DNA of 22,183 nucleotides from Candidatus Odinarchaeia archaeon. Lineage in GTDB: Archaea; Asgardarchaeota; Odinarchaeia; Odinarchaeales; Odinarchaeaceae. The translations under genes and the position numbers were made by a program. The notes below the pieces were generated by a model. That model searched no databases. It was not told the origin of the DNA and saw only the letters and a list, made by a program, of their open reading frames with translations. The stretch is from assembly GCA_029856525.1 (NCBI GenBank), contig JAHQXC010000013.1, forward strand, positions 1 through 22,183. Direction: 5' to 3'. Positions 1 to 16,221 of this stretch are shown piece after piece; within the stretch, counting starts at the first letter, position 1, and the number at the start of each line of letters is the position of its first letter.

Positions 1-1637
1 TCGTTTTTCTCCGCGGCGATTAAAAATTTTGGCTGGTAGAGTGCTTTAAGACTTGGAGTGAATGAGATTTTAGAATAAATCCTTGCCGTGTTTTTAGCCC
101 CTGAAGCCTCCACTCTAACTTTGAACGGTATCCCATTGTAATATAACATTGTACTTATGAGTATAGCTGAAAAAGGTGCTTTTAACAAGTCGAACGGATA
201 GGCTACTAAACGGAATACAGTCCAACTTGGAACTTGAAGCAGCGCTGTTCTCGGTGTGAAAACATTGAAATCTATTATTTTTATCGCAGCAGGCGCAGGG
301 ACAACCCAGTAACTACTCCGCCCGTATATGAAAGGTATATCTATATTCAGGATAATTATTGTTATGAATAAGGATAAAATAAAAGAGATTATGATTGCTA
401 GATGAAGTTTAGCCGGTGAACTTCTAGTTAAATAAGCTGATGAGATACTCCATCCGAGTAATCCTATAAAGGTTAACGTGAAGCTTAGAATTATATTAAA
501 CTCTAATGAGATTTGCTGTGTGAAGCCTGGTCCGATAGGGTTTTCGAAAAGAAATTGGTTGAAGAATGTACTTCCAACACCTGTTGTAAACAACCAGAGA
601 ATTGATAGAGCGAAATTTAAAACCAGTATTATAAAGAAGAGGAATACCCCTATTATCAGACTATAACTTTTAGATTCATCGATTAATTTTTCCACTGCTT
701 CAGGTTTAGAATTATCTTTCTTTATTGAATTTGATATTTTAACCAGTAGGAAAGTTGATAAGCTTTCGTATAATGGAAGGAATGCGGCGAATACTACTGT
801 GCTCATCGCATAATATGAAACAAAATATATTATTGTAGGTATTGAAGCAGGATTCTGCTGGATGAAGAGGATTATACTTAAACCGGATAACACTGCTCCT
901 ATGGATATTAAATAGTAGAAGACTGACTGTCTTATTTTATCTCCGAAAAACTTTCCTTCATAGGAGACTTTGCTGAAGTATAATAAGTGCACAGCGGTTA
1001 TCGGAACTAGTAAATATACTATAAACACTTCTATAAACCAGCCTAGCTCAGAGGACGGGGCTAGTGTATCCGTCACCCCGGTTACAGCTGATAAAACTCC
1101 TGTTAAAAGATATAATGATAACGGTAACAGGACTATTAGCAGTTTTATAAGCTCTTTTTCATCACTCCATGAATTGGTTTCAAGTCTTTCTCTGATAGTT
1201 TTAAGAGGGTTATCTTTCAGCTCGTATCCTATTCTAAAAAATTTCTCTCTAACCCCTCCCCTCTCCCCTCTTAAATGAAATATGATGATTAAAACAGCTA
1301 CTACAGGAGCGCCTACAAATATGAAAGGCCATGAGCTTATTAAAAAATTGAATATGTTTAAGAATATATCCAATGTCATTGTTAGATAGTAACCTAAAAC
1401 AGCTAAGACTTCAACAGGTGTTGTAGCAGTTAAAAGATTAGTAGAGGCTTTACCGCTTAATTGAAATAAAACAGCTGGGAGAATATCGTAGAAAACCCAG
1501 AAGAATACAAAGCAGACTAATAGTCTAATATATAGCGCTCTCCAAACCGGTTTATTTTTCACTAGAGGGTAAGGTGTTAAAGCTGCTAGAATCGGGGTTA
1601 TATTGAAAGCCGCGGATATAAGAGCCTCTAAAACCAT
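1..1637 (-). CDS. Multi-pass integral membrane protein of unknown function (about 11-12 hydrophobic segments, >545 aa, 3' end runs off the window)
   Basis: Absent from the ORF track because it has no stop in the window. Manual translation from ATG at 1637 (MVLEALISAAFNITPILAALTPYPLVKNKPVWRALYIRLLVCFVFFWVFYDILPAVLF...) stays open to position 1 (...SLKALYQPKFLIAAEKN). GAGGAGGT lies just upstream. Long hydrophobic stretches alternate with charged loops. Confidence 0.85.
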   Translation of the reverse strand, partial: MVLEALISAAFNITPILAALTPYPLVKNKPVWRALYIRLLVCFVFFWVFYDILPAVLFQLSGKASTNLLTATTPVEVLAVLGYYLTMTLDIFLNIFNFLISSWPFIFVGAPVVAVLIIIFHLRGERGGVREKFFRIGYELKDNPLKTIRERLETNSWSDEKELIKLLIVLLPLSLYLLTGVLSAVTGVTDTLAPSSELGWFIEVFIVYLLVPITAVHLLYFSKVSYEGKFFGDKIRQSVFYYLISIGAVLSGLSIILFIQQNPASIPTIIYFVSYYAMSTVVFAAFLPLYESLSTFLLVKISNSIKKDNSKPEAVEKLIDESKSYSLIIGVFLFFIILVLNFALSILWLFTTGVGSTFFNQFLFENPIGPGFTQQISLEFNIILSFTLTFIGLLGWSISSAYLTRSSPAKLHLAIIISFILSLFITIIILNIDIPFIYGRSSYWVVPAPAAIKIIDFNVFTPRTALLQVPSWTVFRLVAYPFDLLKAPFSAILISTMLYYNGIPFKVRVEASGAKNTARIYSKISFTPSLKALYQPKFLIAAEKN

Positions 1638-1640
1638 TAA

Positions 1641-1648
1641 ACCTCCTC
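1641..1648 (-). promoter_or_regulatory. Shine-Dalgarno site (GAGGAGGT) of the membrane protein gene
   Basis: Reverse complement of acctcctc, 3 nt before ATG 1637. Confidence 0.7.
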
Positions 1649-1773
1649 TTTAAAATAGGTTTTAAATGGAGAATATATATTCCATAGCTTTATTACCTTT
1701 TTATATTTTTACTTATAATACTTATAAAACAGTTAAATAAAAACAGTTCTGTAGCCTTAAATACTAGGCTGGT

Positions 1774-2505
1774 GTGAGTTTGAAGTTTGAAATAGACCGG
1801 AAATTTCTTAGTAGAATATTATCTAAGGAAGGTTTTAAAACTCTCGATTGTTTATTAAACGATGAAGAAATAAAGGAGATTTACGAAATCGGGGATTTAA
1901 TGGCTAGACTCGAGCATGAAACACCACACGATCACTCTCATGCTATAAGAGCTATGTGTATTTGCGCTGAACTTATAAAGCTTATTCAACGAACGAATCT
2001 CAGCTTAGAAGTCTATAAATTACTTGATAATAAATCTATGAATTTAGCGCTTCTTACAGCAAGCTACCTGCATGATATAGGTAATTTTATAAATAGAGAG
2101 GAGCACGCATTAGCGGGAGCGATGTTAGCGTTTAACATATTAGATAAATATTTCAAGGAGTTAGATCAAGGGCATCTTATTAAAAGCGTTGTTTGCCATG
2201 CGATAGCTGAGCATTCTCCTAGAAAAGTTTTACCTAGCACAGCTTATTCTTCAATAGTAGCTTTATCAGATAAACTTGACATCTCTCATATGAGGGTCTC
2301 AGGCTATAAGCCTTCAACTTTTAAAGAGTATTCTACCGGTGATGTTTTAAATATAGAGCTTAAACGATTGAAAGGGCGGATAATTATAGAAATAACTATA
2401 AGCCACCCCAGTGGATTATACAGGGTTGAAAACCTTAGAAACTATCTTAACATATATGATTTAATAAATAGATACTTTGAGATTACAGTTAAAAATGCTT
2501 TCTAG
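1774..2505 (+). CDS. HD-superfamily metal-dependent phosphohydrolase
   Basis: Motifs PHDHSHAIRA (first His), YLHDIGN (HD), REEH, IAEH and LSDKLD (terminal Asp) give the full metal-ligand set. Start is GTG 1774 or TTG 1780. Confidence 0.85.
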   Translation: MSLKFEIDRKFLSRILSKEGFKTLDCLLNDEEIKEIYEIGDLMARLEHETPHDHSHAIRAMCICAELIKLIQRTNLSLEVYKLLDNKSMNLALLTASYLHDIGNFINREEHALAGAMLAFNILDKYFKELDQGHLIKSVVCHAIAEHSPRKVLPSTAYSSIVALSDKLDISHMRVSGYKPSTFKEYSTGDVLNIELKRLKGRIIIEITISHPSGLYRVENLRNYLNIYDLINRYFEITVKNAF

Positions 2506-3599
2506 CTTTTCATCAACTCTTCTAGTTTAACAGTCCATTGTTTAATCGCTTTATTCAACTCTTTAAGCTCTTCACCGGTTATTTCATTCTTCGACTTAAT
2601 CCGGCTAATCCAAGCGTTAACGCTTATTAAAATAGGATGATTAGGGGGGATGAAGCGCTCCAAGCCGTTTTTAATAGAGATAATACTCTCTAATAATTGG
2701 TTTTCCTCTAGATAGGTGGCTGTTTCACCACTAACCTTCTCCAACCCCTGTAAAATATATGTTTCACAGATCTCCTTAAACACTTTTAAAATCTCATCTC
2801 TATCAGCTAAACTCCTAGATTTTATAGGGTATGTTTTGAAACCTAGAATATTTCCGACTACCCCTGCGTCTAAAGCATCCTTTCTATCCTGCATGTTAGC
2901 TAAACCCACCACCATGGTAGTTTCACTTACATGTTTTTTAAATGAGCCCCAACTCTCCATTGTAGCTAACAGATTAGGGGTTGTAGAGTCTGTCACTATT
3001 AAAATTATATCGCATCCGGATGCATATCTCTCCCACAGCCATCGATGCTCCTCTCTACCAGGTAGATCCCATAAGTTGACAACAGCCTCGCTTGTTATAT
3101 CAGTTAAAGTGTTTCCGTTAGCATCATTTGAAGGAATGTATACTTTGCTAGGCTCCTCTCTGTTTAAAATTTTGAATATAGAGGTTTTACCTGTATTCGG
3201 TTCACCTATCATAATCACTTTAAGAGATAGTGTGGGTGAAGTTATAAGCCTGGTTAAAATCTCGCTGAAGCCCTCTTTCTCATCTTCCGGTACCCCTCTC
3301 TCATTATCCCCATATCTGCGCCGGTATCTTTTAATTATTCTCGAAGCGTAATCTTCTAATACGTTTTCAATATCATCTATGTCTGAAAAAACCACTGCCG
3401 CGATCTCGCCCTCCACTTTAAAAACTATTTTAATGTTACCGATTATTAAATAGGCGAGTTTACTATCTGTTTTCTCTGTTTTTCTAATAATAGCTGTAAT
3501 AATACTCTCCTCGAAGACGTCGAAACTATTTTTCTCATTGAAAACCTTTTGAAATAGTTTTTTACCTGTTTTATGATAGATCTCAATTTTATTTATCAT
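2502..3599 (-). CDS. Longin-like domain fused to an Arf-like small GTPase with a helical C-terminal extension
   Basis: GTPase motifs: G1 GEPNTGKT, G3 WDLPGR, Arf-type RWLWERY and IIVTDS-like IILIVTDS, G4-like LANMQD. The N-terminal ~120 aa show a beta-hairpin/helix/3 strands/2 helices pattern (IEIYHKTGKKLF...LIIGNIKIVFKVEGEIAAVVFSD) typical of longin folds. Confidence 0.8.
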   Translation of the reverse strand: MINKIEIYHKTGKKLFQKVFNEKNSFDVFEESIITAIIRKTEKTDSKLAYLIIGNIKIVFKVEGEIAAVVFSDIDDIENVLEDYASRIIKRYRRRYGDNERGVPEDEKEGFSEILTRLITSPTLSLKVIMIGEPNTGKTSIFKILNREEPSKVYIPSNDANGNTLTDITSEAVVNLWDLPGREEHRWLWERYASGCDIILIVTDSTTPNLLATMESWGSFKKHVSETTMVVGLANMQDRKDALDAGVVGNILGFKTYPIKSRSLADRDEILKVFKEICETYILQGLEKVSGETATYLEENQLLESIISIKNGLERFIPPNHPILISVNAWISRIKSKNEITGEELKELNKAIKQWTVKLEELMKS

Positions 3600-3714
3600 T
3601 TTAACACCGTGTTCTCACTGCTTTTATAATACTTATATATTATTACCCACTAATAAATAAGCTAATAAATTAAATTTTTATCGTTTAAAACAACTTTCAG
3701 CGAGTTGATGAACG

Positions 3715-4269
3715 GTGAGCGGTCCGTTAAAATTCGTTTATAAAATAGTTGTTTTAGGAGACGGAGGAGTCGGGAAAACATGTTTAACTCTCACATTTGT
3801 TAAAAAAGAGTTTAAAACAGATTATATTCCAACTTTAGGAGTGGATATTTATACTAAAGATTTTAATCTAGGCCAAACCGTGATCACTTTGATTATATGG
3901 GATATTGCAGGTCAACAGAAATTCGATCTAGTTAGAAAACAATATTATAAGGGTACTCAAGGAGCTTTAATCGTATTCGATTTGACTAGAATAAATACTT
4001 TCCACAGCGTTGACACCTGGTATAAGGAGTTAACAGAGAACGCGGGTGAGCGCATCCCCATAGTTCTTCTTGGAAATAAAGTCGACGTAGAGGAGGGGAG
4101 AGAGGTATCAGCTGAGCAGTGTAGTCTACTAGCGAAAAAACTCGGATGCGAATATTTTGATACAAGCGCGAAAACAGGGAAGAATGTGGACCAAGCTTTT
4201 CTAACGCTTTTAAAAAAGATTATTCAATTAAATATAACTAGAAGGGAGAGCGTTAAAAAGGTGTTTTAA
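3715..4269 (+). CDS. Rab-like small GTPase (Ras superfamily)
   Basis: G1 GDGGVGKT, G2 YIPTLGVD, G3 WDIAGQ, YYKGTQGALIVFDLT, G4 GNKVD, G5 TSAK. No C-terminal Cys. Confidence 0.95.
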   Translation: MSGPLKFVYKIVVLGDGGVGKTCLTLTFVKKEFKTDYIPTLGVDIYTKDFNLGQTVITLIIWDIAGQQKFDLVRKQYYKGTQGALIVFDLTRINTFHSVDTWYKELTENAGERIPIVLLGNKVDVEEGREVSAEQCSLLAKKLGCEYFDTSAKTGKNVDQAFLTLLKKIIQLNITRRESVKKVF

Positions 4270-5540
4270 TGTCTATTCGCAGCGAGCTGGAAAACTTAAA
4301 GGTGAAAGCTGAGAAGGCGTTAAGTGAATTAGAAGATAAATATTTTAGAAAAGAAATATCCGAGGATCAGTATAAGAAGTGGAGGAATAGGTTAGAGGAT
4401 TACCTGAGATCTTTGCACAAGCAGATGGAGAGCGCCTCCTCTGAGGATACGCTCTCAGCGGAGCGGGCTTCACTATATGAGAAAAGTGAAACTCAAAAGC
4501 TTTTAACAGCGTTTCTAGATGAGAGACTGAAACGGCTTACACCTATTATGGATAAAGAATACGGTGTCAGATACCCTGAAGCTGAGAGGGTAACCGGTCT
4601 TTCACCTCTTGACACGGTTGCCTTAATAGATCAGCTAGCTGAATCTAATATTCTATCACCGTTAATCTACTCTAAGTCTATTAAATGTCCTAGATGCCGC
4701 TCAAATAATATACTAGCTCAATATGTATGCCCTTACTGTCAATCCCCAGACTTCGATAAAGGAAAAGTTATCGAACATTTTAAATGTCATTACATGGATT
4801 TCGAACTGAAATTTAAAAAAGAAGGCGAGCTTTTATGTCCCCGCTGTAATTCAACGCTTAAAAACCTTGGAGTAGACTACCAGAAGCACGGTCCATGGTT
4901 TAAATGCTCTTCCTGTGGTAAGTTTTTCGATGAACCTTTAGCTACATATAACTGCGGTGACTGCGGGTCTATTTTCGAACTTCAACAAGCCGTTTTTCAA
5001 TCACTTTACTCTTATACTTTGAATATGAATTATATTAGCGAGTATGAGAAAGTGACGATTCCATTAAAGGAACTTGAAAAACAGCTAGCTGAGAAGGGAT
5101 GGGTTTTAAAAACACCCGCCTTCATCATAGGTGTCTCCGGCTTAATGCATCAATTTTCAGCCGCGTTCTGGCTTAAAAAGGAAGGCGGGGATGTTATTCT
5201 ACCAGTTGACCCTGATATAATACTAGAAGTTTTCACATCTTCAACCGGTATAACCGCTGAGAAGGTTCTAAGCTTCGCGGTTAAAGCTCAAGATATTGAT
5301 TGTAGAATAAAATTGCTTGTAGGTATACCGAGATTTGAATCGAAAGCCGTGGAGCTTGCCGAGCATTATAATATTGATCTTCTAACTGTCCGAGACCGGA
5401 AAATGTTTGTTGAAACCGTTGCAAATTATATTTTAAGCAGGGAGGTTTCTGTAAGATTACAGCTTCAGACAGCTGAGACCTCTGCGTTAGAAGATGCTTT
5501 AAAAATATTAGAGGATAAGCTTATAGGTCAAGGCGGGTGA
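4269..5540 (+). CDS. TackOD1-like multi-zinc-finger protein with N-terminal SHOCT-like helical segment and C-terminal Mrr/PD-(D/E)xK-like domain
   Basis: Five CxxC plus one HxxC (CPRC, CPYC, HFKC, CPRC, CSSC, CGDC) with GVRYP and GVDY, matching the TackOD1 (PF18551) pattern as I recall it. N-terminal EISEDQYKKWRNRL. C-terminal GVSGLMHQF...ILEVF...AVELAEHYNIDLL. TAATG overlap with the GTPase gene. Confidence 0.75.
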   Translation: MSIRSELENLKVKAEKALSELEDKYFRKEISEDQYKKWRNRLEDYLRSLHKQMESASSEDTLSAERASLYEKSETQKLLTAFLDERLKRLTPIMDKEYGVRYPEAERVTGLSPLDTVALIDQLAESNILSPLIYSKSIKCPRCRSNNILAQYVCPYCQSPDFDKGKVIEHFKCHYMDFELKFKKEGELLCPRCNSTLKNLGVDYQKHGPWFKCSSCGKFFDEPLATYNCGDCGSIFELQQAVFQSLYSYTLNMNYISEYEKVTIPLKELEKQLAEKGWVLKTPAFIIGVSGLMHQFSAAFWLKKEGGDVILPVDPDIILEVFTSSTGITAEKVLSFAVKAQDIDCRIKLLVGIPRFESKAVELAEHYNIDLLTVRDRKMFVETVANYILSREVSVRLQLQTAETSALEDALKILEDKLIGQGG

Positions 5541-5752
5541 CCGGAAGCAAATCCTGTTTTTAACAAGTTTTTATAGTAAGCTATATATTCGAGACTCGAA
5601 TACGTTTATGAACATAGCTCGCTTCTAATGACAGGCATGGGATGAGAAGAATTTTTTAGTAATTGTAGCGGAGGCCGTGAAGCTTTAGTTGAACGCTAGA
5701 AGTGTAGGCTTAGTCTAGAGGTATCTCGCTCATATTTATTGGCTTATAGTCA

Positions 5753-6856
5753 TCAATCACCGTATAATATGATTCTTCTATCTTTCAAAACAGGTATGCT
5801 CTTCCAAAATAATTTTTCATCTAGAAGGGTTAGCGGGGGGATAAAGTTAATTTTTTCCTCTTCGAATACCGGTAGCAGCCAGTAACTGTCAACTTTATCA
5901 AATAAGTATTCTGTGAACACGCTGTGGATTTTACCAAGCCCTCCGTAAGGTAGTGAAAGGAGAAATATGATCCCGTTTAATTCGCCTTTCAAGGTATAGA
6001 AGCTGCATTCAGGTAATGTGAGAAAACCTTGTAAAATACTTTTAAGTATGTTATCATTCTCTGTTTTCACGATGACCGCTATTCTCTCATTTAAACCAGC
6101 GGCTCTCCAATCTATTCTGTAAAGTTTTTTAATAACATTGTTTTCTGTGAAAAACTTTTTTAAATCGTAAAAAATATGCTTATTAAAATTATAGGTTTCA
6201 GCTAACCGGTTAACCGGCGTCCTAGGGTTTGAAACAAGTCTGATTAAAAATCTTATATTCTTTAAAATGTTTAAGTTACGGCTCTCTTTCTCATCGTCAT
6301 ATGCTATCATATTCATTTTCGGGAATAATCCGGAGATATCCCTGTTTATTAACACGTCTTTTATCATTAAACCCCAGTATAACCATTTAATACGCCACTC
6401 TTGGGTTAAATAATCGAAATAATGAAAGGATATGTTATACCCTTCTGACTTGATATAGGTTATATAACTCTCCTTTATCCAATTCCAGCTTTTCATTAAG
6501 CCGAGAGCTGGTTTAATATGGAAATTCAAAGGAGCAGCGTATTTAGCTAAGATGTATAAAGCCTCTCCTCCTATGCACTTATATAGTTCTAAAAGATAAG
6601 GGTTTTTGAGAGCGGCGATAACTTTATCCGCTTTCAAGTAACGGCATTCTACTAAAACCGTGAAGGGTTTTAAGCCTATCTTAGAATAGTTGACTTGGTA
6701 GGATTCTTCGAGTCTAAAATGCTTTCTAAATTTTTTTAAAGCTCGGAAAACCTTGTCTTTTTTAATCTTAAGATTTTTAGCTAGAAATCTGATGCTCTGG
6801 GAAGGGTTTCTCTGCAATTCATTGATTATGTAAACATCGCCGCTTTTAATCTTCAT
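5753..6856 (-). CDS. Tandem (duplicated) Lrp/AsnC-like winged-HTH transcriptional regulator
   Basis: Two repeats: DVYIINELQRNPSQSIRFLAKNLKIKKDKVFRALKKF...VNYSKIGL and IRFLIRLVSNPRTPVNRLAETYNFN...IDWRAAGL, each followed by a RAM/ferredoxin-like segment. Confidence 0.7.
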   Translation of the reverse strand: MKIKSGDVYIINELQRNPSQSIRFLAKNLKIKKDKVFRALKKFRKHFRLEESYQVNYSKIGLKPFTVLVECRYLKADKVIAALKNPYLLELYKCIGGEALYILAKYAAPLNFHIKPALGLMKSWNWIKESYITYIKSEGYNISFHYFDYLTQEWRIKWLYWGLMIKDVLINRDISGLFPKMNMIAYDDEKESRNLNILKNIRFLIRLVSNPRTPVNRLAETYNFNKHIFYDLKKFFTENNVIKKLYRIDWRAAGLNERIAVIVKTENDNILKSILQGFLTLPECSFYTLKGELNGIIFLLSLPYGGLGKIHSVFTEYLFDKVDSYWLLPVFEEEKINFIPPLTLLDEKLFWKSIPVLKDRRIILYGD

Positions 6857-6929
6857 TTTTAACCCTTTAAAGTTGTATTAGTTTGTTTAAATATTTATTT
6901 TTCATTGTTATTAATAAGGTGGTCTCTTA

Positions 6930-8162
6930 GTGAAGCATCCATCTCTCTGCGTTATATGTAAGGGTTCCAGGCTTTTATGCGGGGAGCGCACGTGCCCGAT
7001 ACTTTTAAAACTCCCTATTTTAAAAAGTGTCAAGAGAATAAAAATATCTAGAGATTTATTTTCGGAGAGCCCTCCAGGTGTATTTGTAGGCCACTATAAT
7101 TACCCTAATGTTTCAATCGGCCCTCTTATCTCTTTGGAGCCGATATCGAAGGTGGCTGACATCGACGAAACTGATAGATGGTTCGGTAAAAGTATTCATG
7201 AAATAATAAGGTTGAGGAGTATGCTCTTCCGCTCCTCGTTTAATTTAAGCCGTGAGACTTTAAATACCAAGCTTTTAGAAAATAGCCTTTTAATATCTAT
7301 GGCTTCTAAGCCTGTTTTAACCTCTGTTAAACTTGAAAAAGTATATTCTACACCTATAAGTTTTGACAGCGTATCCGCGCCTTGGGGTGCTTCAGGTAAA
7401 ATAGCTGAAATTGAAATCGATGAAAACCCTGTTATCCACCCTAAAGTTGATTACGTTCACGGTGATACTGATTTAAATTCGCTTGAAGCTATGCGCTTAT
7501 TATATAAGGAGGGTTTTTCTGTAGGGTTTATAACTCGGATTTTAAGCGCCGGCCTTATAGGGGTTGGTAAAAATAGACGGATTGTTCCAACCAGATGGAG
7601 TATAACTGCAGTCGACTCTAATATTTCTAATATTTTACTAGAGGAGATTAAAACTAACAAGCTTATCGAGGATATCCTCCTATTTAAGTCATCTTATTTA
7701 AACAATGAGTTTCGAATTATCCTATTACCAGCAGCTTGGGCTTTCGAACAACTAGAAGCTTGGTCCCCTGGATCGGTTTGGTCTCAGCAGGCAGCGTCTC
7801 CTATAATAATCGGTGATTTCGAGTTTTATGATGGTAGAAAGGATTATGCATCAGAGGTTGCAGGCGCATACTATGCCGCTAGACTAGCTGTATGCGAATA
7901 CCTTTATAGAATAAGACGTCAGGCCGCTGTTTTAGTTTTAAGAGAGATTCGGCCTGAGTATACTATCCCTGTAGGTGTCTGGCAGATTAGAGAGAATGTG
8001 AGACATGCTTTAAAAAACCCGCCTTTAATTTATAATGATCTCGACGCGGCTTTGAAGGCAGCTTGCATCGGGTTGAATATAAGTTTAAATGACTGGATTA
8101 GTAAAAGCAAATTATACTCGTTTTTCAAAAAGCAAAGACGCTTAAACGAGTTTATATTTTAG
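6930..8162 (+). CDS. nreA: Archaeal Nre-family DNA repair protein (NreA)
   Basis: N-terminal CVICKGSRLLCGERTCP Zn motif, SPPGVFVG, RIVPTRWSITAVD, YYAARLAV, PVGVWQIRENVR, C-terminal PIP box QRRLNEF. AGGTGG SD before the GTG start. Confidence 0.92.
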   Translation: MKHPSLCVICKGSRLLCGERTCPILLKLPILKSVKRIKISRDLFSESPPGVFVGHYNYPNVSIGPLISLEPISKVADIDETDRWFGKSIHEIIRLRSMLFRSSFNLSRETLNTKLLENSLLISMASKPVLTSVKLEKVYSTPISFDSVSAPWGASGKIAEIEIDENPVIHPKVDYVHGDTDLNSLEAMRLLYKEGFSVGFITRILSAGLIGVGKNRRIVPTRWSITAVDSNISNILLEEIKTNKLIEDILLFKSSYLNNEFRIILLPAAWAFEQLEAWSPGSVWSQQAASPIIIGDFEFYDGRKDYASEVAGAYYAARLAVCEYLYRIRRQAAVLVLREIRPEYTIPVGVWQIRENVRHALKNPPLIYNDLDAALKAACIGLNISLNDWISKSKLYSFFKKQRRLNEFIF

Positions 8163-8214
8163 AAAATGTTTAACGATTAGCTTTATATTATTAACTTAAA
8201 AATAGGTTATACAT

Positions 8215-9156
8215 ATGGCTTCAAATAGGTTTGCAGTAGTTTTAGATGGGTTAACTAAGAGGTTTAACGGTAAAATCGCTGTCGATCACAACTCTTATGA
8301 AATAGAGGAGGGTGTTATATTCGGGTTACTAGGTCCAAACGGCGCAGGTAAGACGACTACGATAAGACTTTTATCAGGTGTGCTTGAACCTTCAGAGGGG
8401 GATGCTGAAGTATACGGTTATAGATTAAGCAATGACGTTAATATTATTAGATCTATTGTAGGAGTGCTCCCTGAGAATCGCGCTCTCTACGATAGGTTAA
8501 CCGCTCAGGAGAACCTTGAATTTTACGGTCGGCTTTACGGGGTGGAGCCTCCTGAGCTTAATGAGAGAATTGAAAGCCTCCTATCCTTCCTGGACTTGCA
8601 GGATGTTAGAAACACATTTGTGGGAAAATTTAGTATGGGTATGCGCCAGAAGGTTGCTTTAGCTAGAGCGCTTATACATCAGCCTAAGCTTTTACTTTTA
8701 GATGAGCCTACGAGTAATCTTGACCCTGTGATGAGCGCTAAGTTTAAAGAGTATATTAAAGAGTTGAGTAGAGATTTGAAGACAACTATTCTAATTTCAA
8801 GTCATCATTTAGCTGAGGTTGAAAACCTTTGCTCGAAGATCGCGGTTATCAATAATGGGCGTGTTATCTCAGTAGGAGATATTAACGAGTTGAAGAGGAG
8901 GATCTGGGGTTACCGTGAATTTGAAATTAGATTATTAGAGTTAAAACCTGATTTTAAGAAAATAGTTGAGAGTATAAGCGGGGTCTCTGATGTCAGATAC
9001 ACCGGTAATAAAATTTTTTATAGATGCGTTGACGCTGATAAAGTGAATCCGTCTCTTATAAAAGCTCTTGTTCAAGCTAATGCTGAAATTATATCTTTAA
9101 ACGAGGTCGAGAGAACCTTAGAAGACTTGTATATGAAGCTGATTAGAGGTGAATGA
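8215..9156 (+). CDS. ABC-2 type exporter ATP-binding subunit
   Basis: Walker A GPNGAGKT, signature FSMGMRQ, Walker B LLLLDEPT, H-loop SSHHL, C-terminal accessory domain ending TLEDLYMKL. Confidence 0.95.
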   Translation: MASNRFAVVLDGLTKRFNGKIAVDHNSYEIEEGVIFGLLGPNGAGKTTTIRLLSGVLEPSEGDAEVYGYRLSNDVNIIRSIVGVLPENRALYDRLTAQENLEFYGRLYGVEPPELNERIESLLSFLDLQDVRNTFVGKFSMGMRQKVALARALIHQPKLLLLDEPTSNLDPVMSAKFKEYIKELSRDLKTTILISSHHLAEVENLCSKIAVINNGRVISVGDINELKRRIWGYREFEIRLLELKPDFKKIVESISGVSDVRYTGNKIFYRCVDADKVNPSLIKALVQANAEIISLNEVERTLEDLYMKLIRGE

Positions 9157-9956
9157 TTTTGAGATTCAGGGTTTCTATGATAGTAGCTAGAAAGGAGTTT
9201 AAAGAGATCGTTCTTCGAAGTAGGCTTATACTGTCAATGATTTACGTTTTACCTGTAGTATTCGGTGTGGTTATGCCCTGTGTTCTAGCCTGGATTTCGC
9301 TTCCAATGATATGGGCGCCGATAACCGGTTACTCTATTCCCCCTCTTACAGATAACTGGTGGTTGATTCCTCCTGGAGGTCAATTCTATATTTTTTTCAT
9401 TAACCTCTACGCAGGTCTTCTTAACCTAGTTCAACCTTTAATGATTCCTGTCTACATAGCCGCTGATAGTTTTGCAGGTGAAAAAGAGCGTAAGACGCTT
9501 GAACCTGTTTTAGCCGCTCCTATAACTGATTTCGAATTACTTTTCGGGAAGGCTTTAACTTCTCTAATACCTGCTTTAACTGTTAGTTTTCTTTCAATCT
9601 CGCTTAGTATTATAGCCGTGAATATTATCGGCTTCCAAGTCTTCGGATTTATAATCTACCCTGTAGTGCCTATTCTATTGCTTTATATTATCGGAGTACC
9701 TTTGATGAGTCTTTTAACAGTGTTTGCTATGGTTCTTATTTCAAGTAAAGTTAATCGTGTAAGAGAGGCTTCTCAAGTGGGGGGTGTGGTTATCACACCG
9801 GTGCTGATTCTATTCTTTACTCAAATCTTCGGTGTAGTGGAGTTATCTATGGTAACCGTCACAATTTATATACTAGTTTTAATACTTACTGTAGCCTGTT
9901 TAATGTTTGCTAGTTTAAAGGTTTTTAACAGGCGTAGACTGATAGAAATGATTTAA
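9153..9956 (+). CDS. ABC-2 type exporter permease
   Basis: About 6 hydrophobic segments, conserved AGEKERKTLEPVLAAP...LLFGK motif, ATGA overlap with the ATPase gene. Confidence 0.92.
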   Translation: MILRFRVSMIVARKEFKEIVLRSRLILSMIYVLPVVFGVVMPCVLAWISLPMIWAPITGYSIPPLTDNWWLIPPGGQFYIFFINLYAGLLNLVQPLMIPVYIAADSFAGEKERKTLEPVLAAPITDFELLFGKALTSLIPALTVSFLSISLSIIAVNIIGFQVFGFIIYPVVPILLLYIIGVPLMSLLTVFAMVLISSKVNRVREASQVGGVVITPVLILFFTQIFGVVELSMVTVTIYILVLILTVACLMFASLKVFNRRRLIEMI

Positions 9957-10024
9957 ACATGTAGTCTTACTACATAAAATTTAAATAATCATATACTATA
10001 AACTTAAAATTGAGAGGACCGAGT

Positions 10025-10639
10025 ATGGTTAAAGAGACTCTCTCAGATTGGCCTTTAGATGAAAAACTCAGCGATACAGTGTTAGATTTCCTAGTAAAAT
10101 ACCCTAGAGTTTTAAATGAAAGAGTTGTAGTATACTGGGATAACTTCATCTTAACAAATTATAGACTATACTATAGAAACAATGATGGGAAAATATATTT
10201 AATACCACACTATAAAGTTAAAGAATACGTATACAAGGGTGATAACAGATTAATTCTTAAGCTTCGTGATAAGACTGTTATTGAGCTTAACGGGCCGATT
10301 CCTAAATATCAAGTTCTTAAAAAAACATATAGTTTAAGCGATTGGCGTAAGCTTTCGAAAAAGGAAGATGAGCTTTTAGAGAAGACAAACGTGGAGCTAG
10401 GGCGCCCTATAAGAGAGAAACCTAGAAGAGCAGTTGAACAGCCAACAGTTTTAAGCGAGCCGGGTTTCACAATACCGTTAAATAATAAGACTCAAACAGG
10501 TTTTGAACGAATACCCTTCGATATTAAAGCGAATTCTTCTCTAAATCACACCGCCGGTATCTTCTGCCCTCACTGCGGTTTTAAAATTACATTGAATGGA
10601 GCGCGTTTCTGTCCTAATTGCGGTGTGGATCTAATTTAA
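10025..10639 (+). CDS. Hypothetical protein with PH-like N-terminal region and C-terminal double zinc ribbon
   Basis: FILTNYRLYY...IYLIPHYKVKEY...LILKL beta-rich segment resembling bacterial-PH/GRAM-type domains. C-terminal CPHCG...FCPNCG. ATG 10025 is preferred over TTG 10010 because GAGGA lies at 10014-10018. Confidence 0.7.
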   Translation: MVKETLSDWPLDEKLSDTVLDFLVKYPRVLNERVVVYWDNFILTNYRLYYRNNDGKIYLIPHYKVKEYVYKGDNRLILKLRDKTVIELNGPIPKYQVLKKTYSLSDWRKLSKKEDELLEKTNVELGRPIREKPRRAVEQPTVLSEPGFTIPLNNKTQTGFERIPFDIKANSSLNHTAGIFCPHCGFKITLNGARFCPNCGVDLI

Positions 10640-11139
10640 AGCTCCCCTGCTCGCTGAATCCTATCATACAGGTATTCTACGAGTTCGTTAATCTCATCGA
10701 TCTTGCAGTTCTTTAATAATTTAGCCAGCGTGGATAGCTTACTCTTACCTTTACTTTCATCATACTCCACAATTTTCTTATATAAATTAACTCTGCTAAC
10801 AGTAAGCTCTATAGAGTTAACTAATTTCTTGATGAAAGGGAGATCCTCCTCTAGTTTTTTAATTTCATCACTCATCTCATTCATTAATTTTTCAACTTCT
10901 CCCGTAGCCTCCTCGTAGAGTAAACCTAGGTTTTTAAAGTCAACCTCCTCCTCTTCTCTACTAAGCATATTATATATCTCACACATACTTCGATGGAATC
11001 TAAGCCTTTTCTCTAATATTCTAGTCAAATTATTAATGCTAAGTAACGCTTTCTCCAGTACTTCCGTTAGTTTTCTGGAGAGTTCAGGCTGTTTTAATCC
11101 CTCTAATCCTTCGAAAGGATACTCTTCAGCTAATTTCAT
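10636..11139 (-). CDS. Hypothetical all-helical/coiled-coil protein (true start may be upstream)
   Basis: 167 aa E/K/L-rich heptad-like ORF converging on the previous gene with a 4-bp overlap. No motif recognised. Confidence 0.7.
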   Translation of the reverse strand: MKLAEEYPFEGLEGLKQPELSRKLTEVLEKALLSINNLTRILEKRLRFHRSMCEIYNMLSREEEEVDFKNLGLLYEEATGEVEKLMNEMSDEIKKLEEDLPFIKKLVNSIELTVSRVNLYKKIVEYDESKGKSKLSTLAKLLKNCKIDEINELVEYLYDRIQRAGEL

Positions 11140-11231
11140 GTTAATATCCCTTATAAGAGAGAAAATTTTACGTTTAGTCTCTATCTCAGTAGCCTCCTTT
11201 CACTAATAAATCGTGTTTAATATTAACCTCC

Positions 11232-11306
11232 ACTTCTATAAATATTGCTCGTTAAAATATTTTCATAAAGTTTATTAAAAAAATAGTCTTCCATATTTAT
11301 AGAAGT
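11232..11306. repeat. Perfect 14-bp inverted repeat (ACTTCTATAAATAT ... ATATTTATAGAAGT) in the divergent intergenic region upstream of uvrB
   Basis: Arms at 11232-11245 and 11293-11306 are exact reverse complements. A third CTATAAATAT lies at 11319-11328. Confidence 0.75.
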
Positions 11307-11396
11307 TGAATAAAAATGCTATAAATATTTTAAATTTCATGTTAAAATTTTAATAACTAAATTTTTACGCGAATAAAACAGGTTTAATGAGAATAT

Positions 11397-13397
11397 ATGG
11401 GGTTTAAACTGGTAACTGATCTAACTCCGAAAGGTGATCAGCCTAAAGCTATCAGACAGTTAGTTGAAGGCTTCCGTAACGGGTTAAGCCAGCAAGTATT
11501 ATACGGGGTGACTGGTTCAGGTAAAACTTTCGTGATAGCTAATGTAATAGCGGAGCTCGACATTCCAACAATTATAATAGAACCTAATAAAACTTTAGCA
11601 GCCCAGATCACGGCTGAGCTCAGATCCTTCCTTCCAGAGAATGCTGTCGAATATTATGTAAGCTACTATGATTATTACCAACCGGAAGCATATGTGCCTA
11701 CAACCGACACGTATATCGCTAAAGACTATTCTATAAATGAGGAGATAGAGAAATTTAGAATTTCAACGATGAGATCCCTAGCCACGCGACGTGATGTTGT
11801 TGTAGTCGCAACCGTGTCATGTCTTTATCCAGCCGGCTCACCTGAAGACTTCAGAGTTACAAGTAAAATATTCAAGGTTAACCAGGAGATCACCCGTGAA
11901 AACTTCATAACAGAGCTTATTAACCTTCAATATGAGCGCGATGACTTCAACTTTCACAGGGGGACATTCCGTGTGAGAGGTGATTTAATCGACTTATATT
12001 TTTCTTACAGTGATGAAATCGCTAGATTCGAATTTTTCGGAGACGTGATCGAGAAAATAACTATTTTAGAACCTTACAACTATAAGACTTTAAGGGCGGT
12101 TGATTCTATTGAAGTTTTCTCCGGAAGCAGGTTTATAACGACTAAAAGCAAAATTGAACGCGCGATTCTTACAATTGAAGAGGAGCTTGAACAGAGAGTT
12201 AAAGAATTAAAAGCGCTCGGTAAACATTTATACGCTGAACGTCTTGAAAAACGCACCCGCCATGATCTTGAACTACTTAAAGAAATGGGGTTCTGCCCGG
12301 GTATCGAGAATTATTCCCGCCATTTTGACGGTCGAGCGCCAGGTCAGAAACCTTACTGCCTATTAGACCATTTTAACAGTGAATTTCTAATTTTTATCGA
12401 TGAATCGCATCTAACTCTCCCGCAAATACATGCAATGGCTCACGGGGACTATATGCGGAAGAAGAATTTAGTCGACTACGGTTTCAGACTCCCCTCAGCT
12501 TATGATAATCGCCCGATAACCTTCGAGGAGTTCGAGCAATATTTGAAAAAAGTCGTCTATGTATCCGCGACACCCGGCGATTATGAGTTTAAGAAATCGC
12601 AGCAGGTTGTGGAATTAATAATAAGACCTACCGGTTTACTTGACCCTGTTATAGAGGTCCGCAGCACAAAAAATCAAATCGATGATTTAATAAAGGAGAT
12701 TCAGAAGAATCGTTTAAACAATGAGAGAGCTCTTGTAACAACTTTAACTAAGAGGATGGCTGAAGAGCTCTCAGAATACTTGATTGAAGCGGGTATAAGA
12801 GCAGAATACCTTCACAGTGAAGTTGACACGATTGAAAGGGTTAAAATACTTAGAAATCTCAGAGCCGGTAAATTCGATGTAGTGGTAGGTATTAATCTTT
12901 TAAGAGAGGGTCTAGACTTACCTGAAGTCTCGCTTATAGCTATACTAGACGCCGATAAGGAAGGCTTTCTACGCTCTGACACTTCTCTAACCCAGATTAT
13001 AGGACGGGCTTCTAGAAATATTAACGGTCGGGTAATATTATACGCTGATGAGATAACTGAATCTATGCGTAAAGCTATCGAGGAGAATAATCGTAGGCGT
13101 AGAATTCAATTAGAATATAATCAGCGTCATGGAATAGTCCCGGCGACTATAACTAAAAAGATAAGTGATATCGCTCCACCTATAGAGGAGGAAGGCGAAA
13201 TATTAGACGAGGAGACTCGTAGAGAACTTCTCTTACTATCAGACTCCGACATAGATCTTTATATTACAAGTTTAAAAATGAAAATGAGCGAGTACGCTGA
13301 AAGACTAGAATTTGAGAAAGCAGCTGAAATACGGGATAAAATTAGGATGCTGGAAAAAAATCTTGGATTACTCTCTCAACGTGGTGGAAATGAATAA
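11397..13397 (+). CDS. uvrB: Excinuclease ABC subunit B
   Basis: [55 protein letters not shown]-terminal UVR domain [11 protein letters not shown]. Confidence 0.98.
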
Positions 13398-16221
13398 GAA
13401 TATCATTGTGAAAGGGGCTAGGGTTAACAACTTAAAAAATATAGATGTAGTTATTCCACGTGATAAATTAGTTGTTATAACAGGAGTCAGCGGCAGCGGG
13501 AAATCATCTTTAGCATTTGACACCATATACGCTGAAGGTCAGCGCAGATATATTGAATCTCTATCTTCCTATGCACGTCAATTCATAGAGCAGATGGAGA
13601 AACCTGACGTAGACCAAATCACAGGGTTAAGTCCAACTATAGCTATAGACCAGAAATCAGTTAGTAAAAACCCTCGTTCCACTGTTGGAACTGTTACAGA
13701 AATACACGATTATCTGAGATTATTATACGCTAACATCGGGCGCCCTCACTGTTGGATATGCGGCAGGGAGATAAGCGTTTTAACAACTGATCAAATAATA
13801 GATGAAATCTTAAAACAAACCGGTAAAAAGTTAATGATTCTATCCCCGATTATAAGAGGGCGTAAAGGACAATACCAAACTCTTTTAAGCCAATTATTAA
13901 AAGACGGTTTTATAAGGGTGAGAGTGGACGGTAAATTCTACAATCTAGATAAGGACACGGTTGAATTAGATAAGTATAAGGCTCACACAATTGAAATAGT
14001 CGTCGACCGTTTAATGCTAACAGAAGTAACCCCTGAGCTGAGAAAGCGTGTAGCTGACTCTGTTGAAACAGCTTTAAACTACTCTAAGGATCTGGTTAAC
14101 ATATATCTGGTTGATGAGGATAAGAATATCTTGTTAAGCAGGAGCTTCGGCTGTTCGTACTGCGGTGTAACATTAGAGAAGCTTACACCGAGAATGTTTT
14201 CATTCAACTCCCCTTACGGTGCATGTGAAACCTGCGACGGCTTAGGTTATATAATGAAAATCGACCCTGACTTAGTGATCCCGGATAAAACGCTCTCGAT
14301 AGCGGAGGGTGCTATTAAACCTTTTAGAAACAGGTTTAACAACTCATACTACTATGCTCTTCTCAGCGCAGTCGCCGAGCATTATGGTTTCAGTTTAGAA
14401 ACCCCTTTCAACCAGCTTGACGAAAAATATCAGCGGATAATCTTATACGGTAGCGATGAGCCTATATTATTCACGTATACAGGGAGGAGTGGAAGCTACT
14501 GGCAGACTACGAAGCGATTTGAAGGGGTTATACCAAGCCTTGAAAGAAGGTATAATGAGACAAGCTCCCTATCTACTAAAATTGAAATCGAACAGTATAT
14601 GGCTGAGCTTCCATGTCCTTCATGTCAGGGTAAAAGGCTTAAACCAGCTAGTCTAGCTGTTAAAATCAACGGGAAAAATATCAGCGAACTAGAAGATATG
14701 TCGATAAGCCAGCTTTACGATTTCTTTAACAATCTTAAACTATCTGATGTCGAATTAATGATCGCTGATAAAATACTAAGAGAAATCAAGAAACGCTTAG
14801 AGTTTTTAATCAACGTAGGCCTAGATTATTTAACTTTAAGTCGTTCAAGCCGAACATTAGCTGGAGGTGAAGCGCAGCGGATTAGACTCGCCACTCAACT
14901 AGGCTCAGGTCTTATGGGCGTCATCTATATTCTAGACGAGCCGAGTATAGGATTACACCCTCGAGATAATCTGAAGCTTATAAACACGTTGAAAAGCCTG
15001 CGCGATCTAGGGAATACTGTGATCGTTGTCGAACACGACGAGGAGACTATGAGAAACGCGGATTATATTATCGATATCGGCCCGGGAGCCGGAGAGAACG
15101 GCGGTCTAATAGTAGCCTCAGGAACCCCTGATGAACTTATTATAAACAGTAAAGATTCTTTAACAGCTAAATACCTGCGCGGAGAATTGAAGATTCACAT
15201 ACCTGTTAAACGAAGACAGCCTAAAGGCTTCATTCGCGTGATCGGCGCGAAAGCTAATAATCTTAAAAACATTACAGTAGATTTTCCGCTAGGTGTTCTA
15301 TGCGCGGTAACCGGTGTCTCCGGCAGCGGGAAGAGCACTCTTGTAGAAGAAGTCTTATACAAAGGGTTAATGAGGAGACTATACCACTCTAAAATAGTTC
15401 CAGGTGAACATGAAGATATTAAGGGATTAGATCAAATAGATAAAGTTATAATAATCGATCAGTCTCCTATAGGTAGAACCCCGCGATCTAATCTTGCAAC
15501 TTACACCGGCGTCTGGACTCATATAAGAACTCTTTTCGCGCAGACACCTGACGCGAGGAGGAGAGGGTATAAACCCGGGCGTTTCAGTTTTAACGTTAAA
15601 GGCGGTAGATGTGAAAGCTGTGAAGGTCAGGGGATTAAAAAAATAGAAATGCATTTTCTACCCGACATCTATATTCCATGCGAGGTGTGTGACGGTAAAA
15701 GATTCAATGTTGAAACACTTCAAATAAAATACAAAGATAAGAATATATATGATATTCTTAATATGAGCGTGAATCAAGCATTAGAGTTCTTCAATAATAT
15801 ACCTCAAATAACAAAGATATTGAAAACAGTTCAAGATGTTGGGTTAGGTTATGTTAAGCTAGGGCAGCAGGCTCCAACACTTTCAGGGGGTGAGGCTCAA
15901 CGAATAAAATTGAGTCGAGAACTGAGTAAGCGCGACACTGGTAGGACTCTTTACATTCTCGATGAACCGACTACAGGCCTCCATTTTTCAGATATTCAAA
16001 AATTACTTGACGTTCTAAACCGGCTCGTAGACGCCGGTAACACTATAATTATCATCGAACATAACTTGGATGTAATAAAAAGCGCAGACTATATTATCGA
16101 CTTAGGCCCGGAGGGGGGTGAAAAAGGCGGTTTAGTGATAGCTCAGGGGACGCCTGAACAGGTAGCGGAGAATAATAATTCTTATACGGGTATGTTTCTA
16201 AGAGGTGTTTTAAACAGGTGA
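13390..16221 (+). CDS. uvrA: Excinuclease ABC subunit A
   Basis: Two Walker A GVSGSGKS, signatures LAGGE and [13 protein letters not shown] and DEPTTGLH, CxxC zinc modules. Start set at ATG 13390 ([18 protein letters not shown]), the canonical UvrA N-terminus, rather than 13312. Confidence 0.98.

Follow-up and report, generated by a model that had tools for sequence, protein, structure and literature searches.

Among the closest described relatives of the locus reported here are the REC-TackOD1 response regulators of Thaumarchaeota (Galperin et al. 2018, PMC5847659). The same study listed Odinarchaeota among the TackOD1-bearing taxa with GTPases unmentioned, and termed the role of TackOD1 obscure. 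A literature search on TackOD1 and arCOG06883 found no publication linking the domain to GTPases. Asgard archaea encode dozens of Ras-superfamily GTPases, whose effectors and regulators are essentially unassigned. Longin-GTPase fusions have already been published in Asgard archaea (Tran et al. 2024, PMC10933270; Liu et al. 2020, bioRxiv 10.1101/2020.10.19.343400), and other GTPase neighbourhoods have been described there (Liu et al. 2020 preprint, 10.1101/2020.10.19.343400). Gene order has rarely been helpful for finding partners of Asgard GTPases (PMC10933270), and the GTPase genes of MK-D1 are generally not in operons with those of their regulators (Tran et al. 2024, PMC10933270). In this study, a stretch of 22,183 nucleotides (the window; GenBank JAHQXC010000013.1, contig C118 of a 1.32-Mb Odinarchaeia metagenome-assembled genome that is 93% complete) was analysed, in which a Rab-like GTPase gene, a TackOD1 gene and a longin-GTPase gene lie side by side.

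The TackOD1 protein of this locus shares with the REC-TackOD1 regulators the same core of five CxxC and one HxxC motifs, coupled to an upstream molecular switch, and the same C-terminal endonuclease-fold domain follows the core in most relatives. Here, however, the part of the switch is taken by a Ras-superfamily GTPase with a gene of its own just upstream rather than by a fused phospho-receiver domain, and the Odinarchaeial protein has additional N- and C-terminal helices and is without Asp297. The Asgard operon of LAMTOR1-like, Rab-like and DENN genes (Liu et al. 2020 preprint) is likewise a conserved neighbourhood of a Rab-like protein and a longin/roadblock-superfamily protein, whereas no DENN or LAMTOR-like gene is present here and the third gene encodes a TackOD1 protein of DNA-binding type. 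In contrast to the MglA-MglB and SRbeta-SRX systems, the longin domain and its GTPase form one polypeptide here, and there is no signal recognition particle context. We propose, with a probability of about one half, that the locus is a small-GTPase signalling cassette in which a Rab-like switch and a TackOD1 effector form an operon with a DNA-directed output and the longin-GTPase is a third component.

The open reading frame (ORF) calls and the sequence bore out the gene layout described in an earlier note on this DNA, namely three genes, of which two diverge from a 115-bp spacer and two are coupled by TAATG. Three intact ORFs encode the longin-GTPase (365 amino acids, positions 2502-3599, minus strand), the Rab-like GTPase (184 amino acids, 3715-4269, plus strand) and the TackOD1 protein (423 amino acids, 4269-5540, plus strand), and the first two are separated by the spacer at 3600-3714. 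The TAATG at 4267-4271 joins the Rab-like stop codon to the overlapping TackOD1 start. The start codon of the Rab-like gene is GTG; an ATG close by, at 3708, lies in another frame. Proteins of the window are 77-86% identical to those of Candidatus (Ca.) Odinarchaeum yellowstonii and other Odinarchaeia. Since Ras-superfamily genes number about 17 per 1.4 Mb in Odinarchaeial genomes, an adjacent pair of GTPase genes would arise by chance in only a few percent of cases.

The 184-residue protein is a Ras/Rab-type small GTPase, with a match to Pfam Ras (PF00071, E 9.5e-57, 191.5 bits) and canonical Rab-like G1-G5 motifs (GDGGVGKT, YIPTLGV, WDIAGQ, NKVD and TSAK). GDGGVGKT, T40, WDIAGQ, NKVD and TSAK are conserved across the alignment of Rab-like proteins (A5), and judged by these motifs the protein looks like an ordinary active switch. 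It departs from eukaryotic Rabs in lacking a prenylation site, as its C-terminus reads ...SVKKVF and a C-terminal Cys is absent from all orthologs.

The 423-residue protein matched Pfam TackOD1 (PF18551) with E 4e-36 and 124.8 bits against a cut-off of 32, and its 11 cysteines form the five CxxC and one HxxC motifs of the family. These cysteines are invariant (C140, C143, C154, C157, C173, C190, C193, C213, C216, C229 and C232), and H170 is present in at least 90% of the aligned rows. In the structural model (predicted local distance difference test score, pLDDT, 94.5), an N-terminal helical hairpin (residues 1-71, helices 3-26 and 32-71; positions 4269-4481, plus strand) precedes the TackOD1 core (residues 72-251; 4482-5021, plus strand), in which an ArsR/SmtB-like winged helix is followed by the Cys and His motifs. 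A domain of restriction-endonuclease fold (residues 260-386; 5046-5426, plus strand), with Ser at the family Asp position 297, and a long C-terminal helix of 44 residues (377-420; 5397-5528, plus strand), recognised in the model and in alignment A6, complete the protein. The simple Zn-finger effector that the earlier note had envisaged thus gave way to a winged helix, a zinc-ribbon array and an endonuclease fold.

Among 1.8 billion cluster representatives, 2127 relatives of the TackOD1 protein were found; most have 320-350 residues, and their alignments cover residues 65-375 of the query, which indicates that the Pfam TackOD1 region and the C-terminal domain together form the evolutionary unit. 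The N-terminal hairpin is common to the GTPase-linked orthologs of Atabeyarchaeia and absent in most of the family, whose members align from about residue 65; the orthologs at L038 and L070 align from residues 5-6. The long C-terminal helix was found in GTPase-linked orthologs. In 35 longer relatives, the C-terminal domain matched Mrr_cat in 12 and NA-iREase1 in four, and eight of the 35 carry a fused receiver domain, while a TackOD1 form of Freyarchaeum is fused to an Lrp/AsnC regulator. These fusions mark the TackOD1 unit as a signalling module. The fusions to receiver or Lrp/AsnC domains, together with the winged helix and the endonuclease fold, point to a prokaryote-style, DNA-directed output rather than to proto-eukaryotic trafficking, and the proto-eukaryotic cascade in which the earlier note had cast these genes is for this reason not favoured.

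The C-terminal domain has the PD-(D/E)xK restriction-endonuclease fold (Mrr_cat-like) by fold similarity, and it resembles the CRISPR ancillary nucleases Can2, Cdn1 and Card1 as well as NucC. The acidic and Lys positions of the family, whose catalytic roles are inferred, are D297 (Asp in 85 of 148 sequences), D/E320, K339 and D342; the protein described here has S297, E320, K339 and D342. Position 297 is never Asp in those members of Rab operons that keep the domain (Odinarchaeia, Atabeyarchaeia and Asgardarchaeum), and K339 and D342 are kept. The domain is therefore probably non-catalytic, as judged from motif positions and not from a residue-level structural superposition. The fold raises the question of a conflict or defence system, in which the GTPase switch would license a nuclease effector, namely the endonuclease-fold domain and perhaps an HD-domain protein encoded nearby, against invading DNA. 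The likeness to Can2, Cdn1, Card1 and NucC, the adjoining HD gene, the Mrr_cat matches of some family members and the patchy distribution of TackOD1 in Asgard archaea (110 of 400 genomes, 30 of 85 genera) are in keeping with such a function. However, when the five locus proteins were searched against the PADLOC defence models at a threshold of E 0.001, none reached it, and the sole match was LeoA (E 0.0045, with no stretch passing). Furthermore, the TackOD1 gene is single-copy and syntenic throughout the cassette-bearing Odinarchaeia, whose genomes have 1.3-1.4 Mb, base composition is even throughout the region, Asp297 is lost in every Rab-operon member retaining the domain, and fusions to receiver or Lrp/AsnC domains are typical of signalling. 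A defence function is accordingly regarded as improbable.

The Rab-like/TackOD1 gene pair is a conserved neighbourhood in several Asgard classes. The locus search with a seven-sequence TackOD1 alignment found only two Odinarchaeial loci and the Atabeyarchaeia locus. In Atabeyarchaeia the Rab-like gene precedes the TackOD1 gene with a gap of 6 nt (L070, CP147779), and in a related metagenome contig (L038) with a gap of 31 nt; Ca. Asgardarchaeum (L071) has the same order. In Helarchaeota (L072) the order is reversed, the TackOD1 gene preceding and overlapping the Rab-like gene by 4 nt, and this operon is convergent with a gene for an Arf GTPase with an N-terminal domain, which itself follows a gene for a KaiC-like ATPase. 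In Ca. Freyarchaeum deiterrae, a cluster of 14 kb (L075, chromosome 3324000-3344000; 1034-14841) holds genes for three tandem longin-GTPases, a Rag-like GTPase, a Rab-like GTPase, the TackOD1-Lrp/AsnC fusion, a second TackOD1 protein and two KaiC-like ATPases. Freyarchaeum and Helarchaeota are thus independent cases in which longin- or N-domain-bearing Arf/Rag-like GTPases lie clustered with TackOD1 genes. Among the 30 best Asgard TackOD1 loci, 12, from five of nine families, have a small GTPase gene within 1.5 kb, and 18 have none, so that the link holds for a subset only. As Ras-superfamily genes occur once per 82-138 kb in these genomes, a rough binomial estimate of the chance of five of nine families is about 3e-5. 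The GTPase link spans TackOD1 proteins with differing terminal additions, which makes the shared core the part most likely to be regulated; the terminal helices specific to Odinarchaeia and Atabeyarchaeia may offer an extra docking site.

Several further observations were made on these loci. Both TackOD1 genes of the Freyarchaeum genome lie in its cluster, together with five GTPase genes, four of which are among the 26 PF00071 (Ras) matches of the genome. The TackOD1 proteins of Helarchaeota (L072, 8909-9916, minus strand; residues 1-125) and Freyarchaeum (L075, 13405-14841, plus strand; 478 amino acids, residues 1-140) have an unannotated N-terminal domain, which resembles the N-terminal domain of the adjoining 324-residue Arf-like GTPase. 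Compared with the longin profile by hhalign, this domain gave a probability of 31.6%, which is no more than suggestive of a longin-like fold, and it matched no PDB sequence. In unrelated contigs, genes for KaiC-like ATPases adjoin TackOD1 genes or their GTPase partners (L103, 5080-5790; L104, 4513-5214; L072, 6529-7365; L035, 4077-4817), which suggests that these ATPases, like receiver domains and small GTPases, are a kind of TackOD1-associated switch, the third.

When 36 Rab-like sequences, with a partial sample of paralogs, were placed in a tree, the TackOD1-linked proteins of Odinarchaeia, Atabeyarchaeia, Asgardarchaeum and Helarchaeota fell into one subtree (support 92/88), together with two unlinked rows, and the TackOD1-linked protein of Freyarchaeum was placed elsewhere. 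The linkage label required four changes on this tree against a mean of 10.2 after shuffling, and none of 500 shuffles was as low. The tree suggests, and given the partial sample does not prove, that the Rab-TackOD1 operon is old.

The multimer prediction that the earlier note had called for was weakly positive for the Rab-like and TackOD1 proteins, with a score of 0.46 compared with 0.00 for the best of three controls, and 0.46 lies in a weak band in which passes are more often wrong than right unless the prior is strong. In the benchmark, 58 of 80 solved complexes and two of 110 mismatched pairs came up to the pass mark; scores of 0.60 or less occurred in only seven of those 80 solved complexes and in both passing mismatches. 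The runs shared at least 74% of contacts, and the pLDDT of the partners was at least 77. The predicted complex lends weak support to binding of the TackOD1 protein by the Rab-like GTPase.

The longin-GTPase was modelled from 17 homologs (pLDDT 84.6) in three parts: a longin domain (residues 1-120; positions 3240-3599, minus strand), a small GTPase domain that is Arf/Arl-like by Pfam and has non-canonical motifs (residues 122-290; 2730-3236, minus strand) and a four-helix C-terminal region ending in a bundle with a conserved PPNHPI motif (residues 291-365; 2505-2729, minus strand). Pfam found a weak match to Fuz_longin_1 (E 0.008, residues 10-86), below its cut-off, and a protein search with residues 1-122 returned no usable match. 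Secondary structure assigned by DSSP to the model (E2-9, E14-19, H31-42, E48-53, E56-63, E66-73, H78-96 and H105-120, with pLDDT mostly 87-93) has the element order of a longin domain, b1-b2-a1-b3-b4-b5-a2-a3. A profile of the N-terminal domains of this protein, its Odinarchaeial paralogs and Freyarchaeum relatives (A7), run against PDB sequences, matched AP-2 sigma (E 3.5e-6, aligned from residue 1) and AP-3 sigma (5e-6), with sigma subunits ranging to 1e-5, the longin domain of VAMP7 (E 1.3e-3) and, with E 0.003-0.06, the N-terminus of AP-2 mu and coatomer delta and zeta. By profile and modelled topology, the N-terminal part is a genuine longin domain, which puts the "longin-like" domain of the earlier note on firmer ground than Pfam alone. 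A structure search with the whole model returned matches to the G-domain only, did not separate Arf, Rab, Sar and SRbeta, and was silent on the longin domain and the bundle.

The G-domain matched Pfam Arf (E 1.6e-13, residues 114-263) and has an Arf-like fold. The protein departs from Arf in the strict sense, with a 120-residue longin domain at the N-terminus instead of an amphipathic helix and with WDLPGR as G3 instead of WDxGGQ; it departs from Rag/Gtr proteins, as no C-terminal roadblock domain is predicted and the Pfam Gtr1_RagA match (E 0.016) is below cut-off; and it departs from SRbeta, with 22.1 bits for Pfam SRPRB against a cut-off of 25. As the protein starts straight with the longin domain, a membrane anchor could not be accommodated at its N-terminus.

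The same genomes encode three groups of canonical paralogs, which have GVGKT, PT, WDFxGQ and NKQD, and alignment with these showed that the longin-GTPase retains the P-loop (G1 GEPNTGKT) and has PS in switch I, WDLPGR as G3 and NMQD as G4. In this orthogroup the switch I Thr is replaced by Ser, NKxD is changed to NMQD, and the catalytic Gln is replaced by Arg, or by Lys in P0008, the most divergent member. A helical extension of about 75 residues with the PPNHPI motif was gained; the modelled helices are 264-291, 293-313, 322-336 and 342-364, and residues 264-364 are without strands. The bundle is present in P0001-P0008 and in none of the paralogs, and no match spanning it was found in the other Asgard genomes searched. 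By these alignments the orthogroup is derived relative to the canonical paralogs. The published Asgard longin- or roadblock-fused Rag/Arf-like GTPases likewise have an N-terminal longin domain fused to an Arf/Rag-like GTPase, and canonical paralogs of that kind are encoded in the genome studied here; the Odinarchaeial orthogroup, in contrast, has DLPGR, NMQD and a C-terminal helical bundle instead of a roadblock domain, and its gene lies head-to-head with a Rab-like/TackOD1 operon.

The regulator role that the earlier note gave the longin-GTPase, or an MglA/MglB-like variant of it, could go with an output at the membrane or a cell-surface structure. The longin-GTPase would then be a guanine nucleotide exchange factor (GEF) or GTPase-activating protein for the Rab-like GTPase, TackOD1 would be a protein-binding adaptor, and the output would be vesicle-like trafficking or the control of polarity or pili. 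Small GTPases are under the control of longin and roadblock platforms in organisms from bacteria to eukaryotes (PMC10933270), type IV pilus loci of Thaumarchaeota contain TackOD1 genes (PMC4858521), and the modelled N-terminal hairpin of the TackOD1 protein appears to be the type of element that many Rab effectors use. Nevertheless, a winged helix and an endonuclease fold are part of the TackOD1 protein, which has relatives fused to Lrp/AsnC, the Rab-like protein is without a lipidation motif, and the longin-GTPase, with its canonical catalytic Gln lost, does not look like a dedicated GEF. Moreover, ORFs, Pfam matches and divergent Odinarchaeia contigs revealed no pilus, ESCRT or membrane-remodelling genes in the conserved core of the locus. 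We give an output of this kind little credence.

The synteny check suggested in the earlier note upheld the three-gene neighbourhood within Odinarchaeia, where it is conserved down to 41% identity despite changed flanks. The three genes occur together in all four genomes of the genus and in the divergent Odinarchaeia contigs L035, L036 and L037, seven lineages in all; the longin-GTPases of the three contigs have 55%, 48% and 41% identity. The gap or overlap between the Rab-like and TackOD1 genes is at most 21 nt in the six other lineages, and the divergent spacer has 115-179 bp. The outer flanks encode, for example, an H+-pyrophosphatase and asparagine synthase in the divergent contigs, and a membrane protein and nreA in the window. 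Beyond the class, the three-gene module of the earlier note stood only in part: the Rab-TackOD1 operon recurs outside Odinarchaeia, while the longin-GTPase subfamily does not.

The divergent spacer contains A/T-rich TATA-like elements near each gene and, at its centre midway between them, a tandem repeat CTAATAAAT-N3-CTAATAAAT (3650-3670). This tandem occurs once in the 1.32-Mb genome, the single 9-mer 44 times. Within the genus the repeat block is conserved, and part of it can be recognised in L035 and L037; it is a candidate operator for co-regulation of the divergent genes. A third, single copy of CTAATAAAT is located at 11203-11211, in the gap preceding an ORF at 11397.

Several findings weigh against the proposed cassette. 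The larger share of the best TackOD1 loci has no GTPase gene nearby, the key branch of the Rab tree is not strongly supported by both measures with paralogs only partly sampled, and the complex score is in the weak band. Retention of K339 and D342 may mean that the endonuclease-fold domain has residual nuclease activity, and the thaumarchaeal pilus loci hint at a target other than DNA (PMC4858521). The longin-GTPase orthogroup was found only in Odinarchaeia, and no longin-GTPase gene lies within about 7 kb of the Rab-TackOD1 loci of Atabeyarchaeia and Asgardarchaeum, so that it is not required for the core pair. Finally, in the other Odinarchaeial family (G001-G003, 78-91% complete) no ortholog of any of the three genes was found, and the cassette is thus dispensable.

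The findings on the longin-GTPase bear on whether the locus consists of two independent units, a functional Rab-TackOD1 pair and an unrelated neighbouring longin-GTPase gene together with the HD gene. Their adjacency would then have been kept by descent in a slowly rearranging, streamlined lineage, with the spacer serving as two back-to-back promoters. The restriction of the orthogroup to Odinarchaeia and the operons elsewhere that are without a longin-GTPase gene favour independence, as do the three to four further longin-GTPase paralogs at other loci of Odinarchaeial genomes and the general location of small GTPase genes of MK-D1 outside operons with longin or roadblock genes (PMC10933270). 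On the other hand, the pair stays together to 41% identity although the outer flanks change, all three genes are jointly absent from the other family, and in Freyarchaeum and Helarchaeota longin- or N-domain-bearing Arf/Rag-like GTPases are clustered with TackOD1 genes, though arranged differently. Independence is therefore considered unlikely, while deserving serious weight.

In the signalling cassette that we propose, the Rab/Ras-like GTPase would be the switch, translationally coupled to the TackOD1 protein as its probable effector. We infer that the two proteins bind physically, that DNA is the target and that regulation runs from the GTPase to TackOD1: the GTP-bound Rab-like protein would bind the TackOD1 protein and alter its binding to DNA, and the output would be gene regulation, not cleavage or membrane traffic. 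The small GTPase would thereby fill the role that the fused receiver domain has in the thaumarchaeal TackOD1 response regulators. The longin-GTPase would be an Odinarchaeia-specific third component of the same pathway, possibly slow-hydrolysing or partner-dependent, and its longin platform may regulate the Rab-like switch or the protein may pair with it. A bolder version, in which a dedicated Rab-like clade directly switches a TackOD1 DNA-binding protein in an ancient, Asgard-wide pathway and the hydrolysis-impaired longin-GTPase of Odinarchaeia is the cognate regulator or heterodimeric partner, is put forward tentatively, as a possibility with the odds against it.

The neighbouring genes of the locus are an HD-domain phosphohydrolase gene (243 amino acids, 1774-2505, plus strand; Pfam HD, E 6.9e-8), convergent with the longin-GTPase gene and overlapping its 3' end by 4 bp, and a gene convergent with the TackOD1 gene for a 367-residue protein with a weak N-terminal match to a winged helix-turn-helix (HTH) domain (5753-6856, minus strand; Pfam HTH_24, E 5.6e-4, below cut-off). 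The HD gene is kept in the same convergent position in L035, L036 and L037 and is absent from the non-Odinarchaeial loci; it is a possible accessory gene of the cassette. Homologs of the HTH gene lie beside the TackOD1 gene in G004, G005, G006, L035 and L037, and are kept wherever a divergent contig reaches that far; the HTH protein is a conserved neighbour in Odinarchaeia that may or may not belong to the cassette. Elsewhere, in G001-G003 (L076, which is G001:C2; G002:C148; G003:C176), a canonical longin-GTPase paralog gene (5732-6577 of L076, minus strand) was observed head-to-head with a gene for a 612-residue fusion of a Ras-like GTPase and an M20 peptidase (6855-8693, plus strand); the orthologs of the two in the Odinarchaeum genus are about 35 kb apart. 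A Ras-like gene of the complete Odinarchaeum genome (G006:C1:20775-21256, minus strand) appears to be split by in-frame TAG codons, one or two according to the search used, and may be a pseudogene.

The Rab-like/TackOD1 operon, present in at least four Asgard classes, offers a clonable pair of GTPase and probable effector from the 1.3-Mb genome of a thermophile, with a candidate third partner adjoining. On the bolder version, small GTPases would have replaced two-component receivers as inputs of gene regulation in the archaeal relatives of eukaryotes, and Asgard small GTPases would gain both an effector that can be assigned to them and a pair of GTPases in which one regulates the other, each the first of its kind. 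Should the output prove to be DNA binding, at least some "eukaryote-like" GTPases of Asgard archaea would serve prokaryote-style gene regulation rather than membrane traffic, the TackOD1 domain would have its first functional context, and the finding would bear on the later recruitment of GTPase families in eukaryogenesis.

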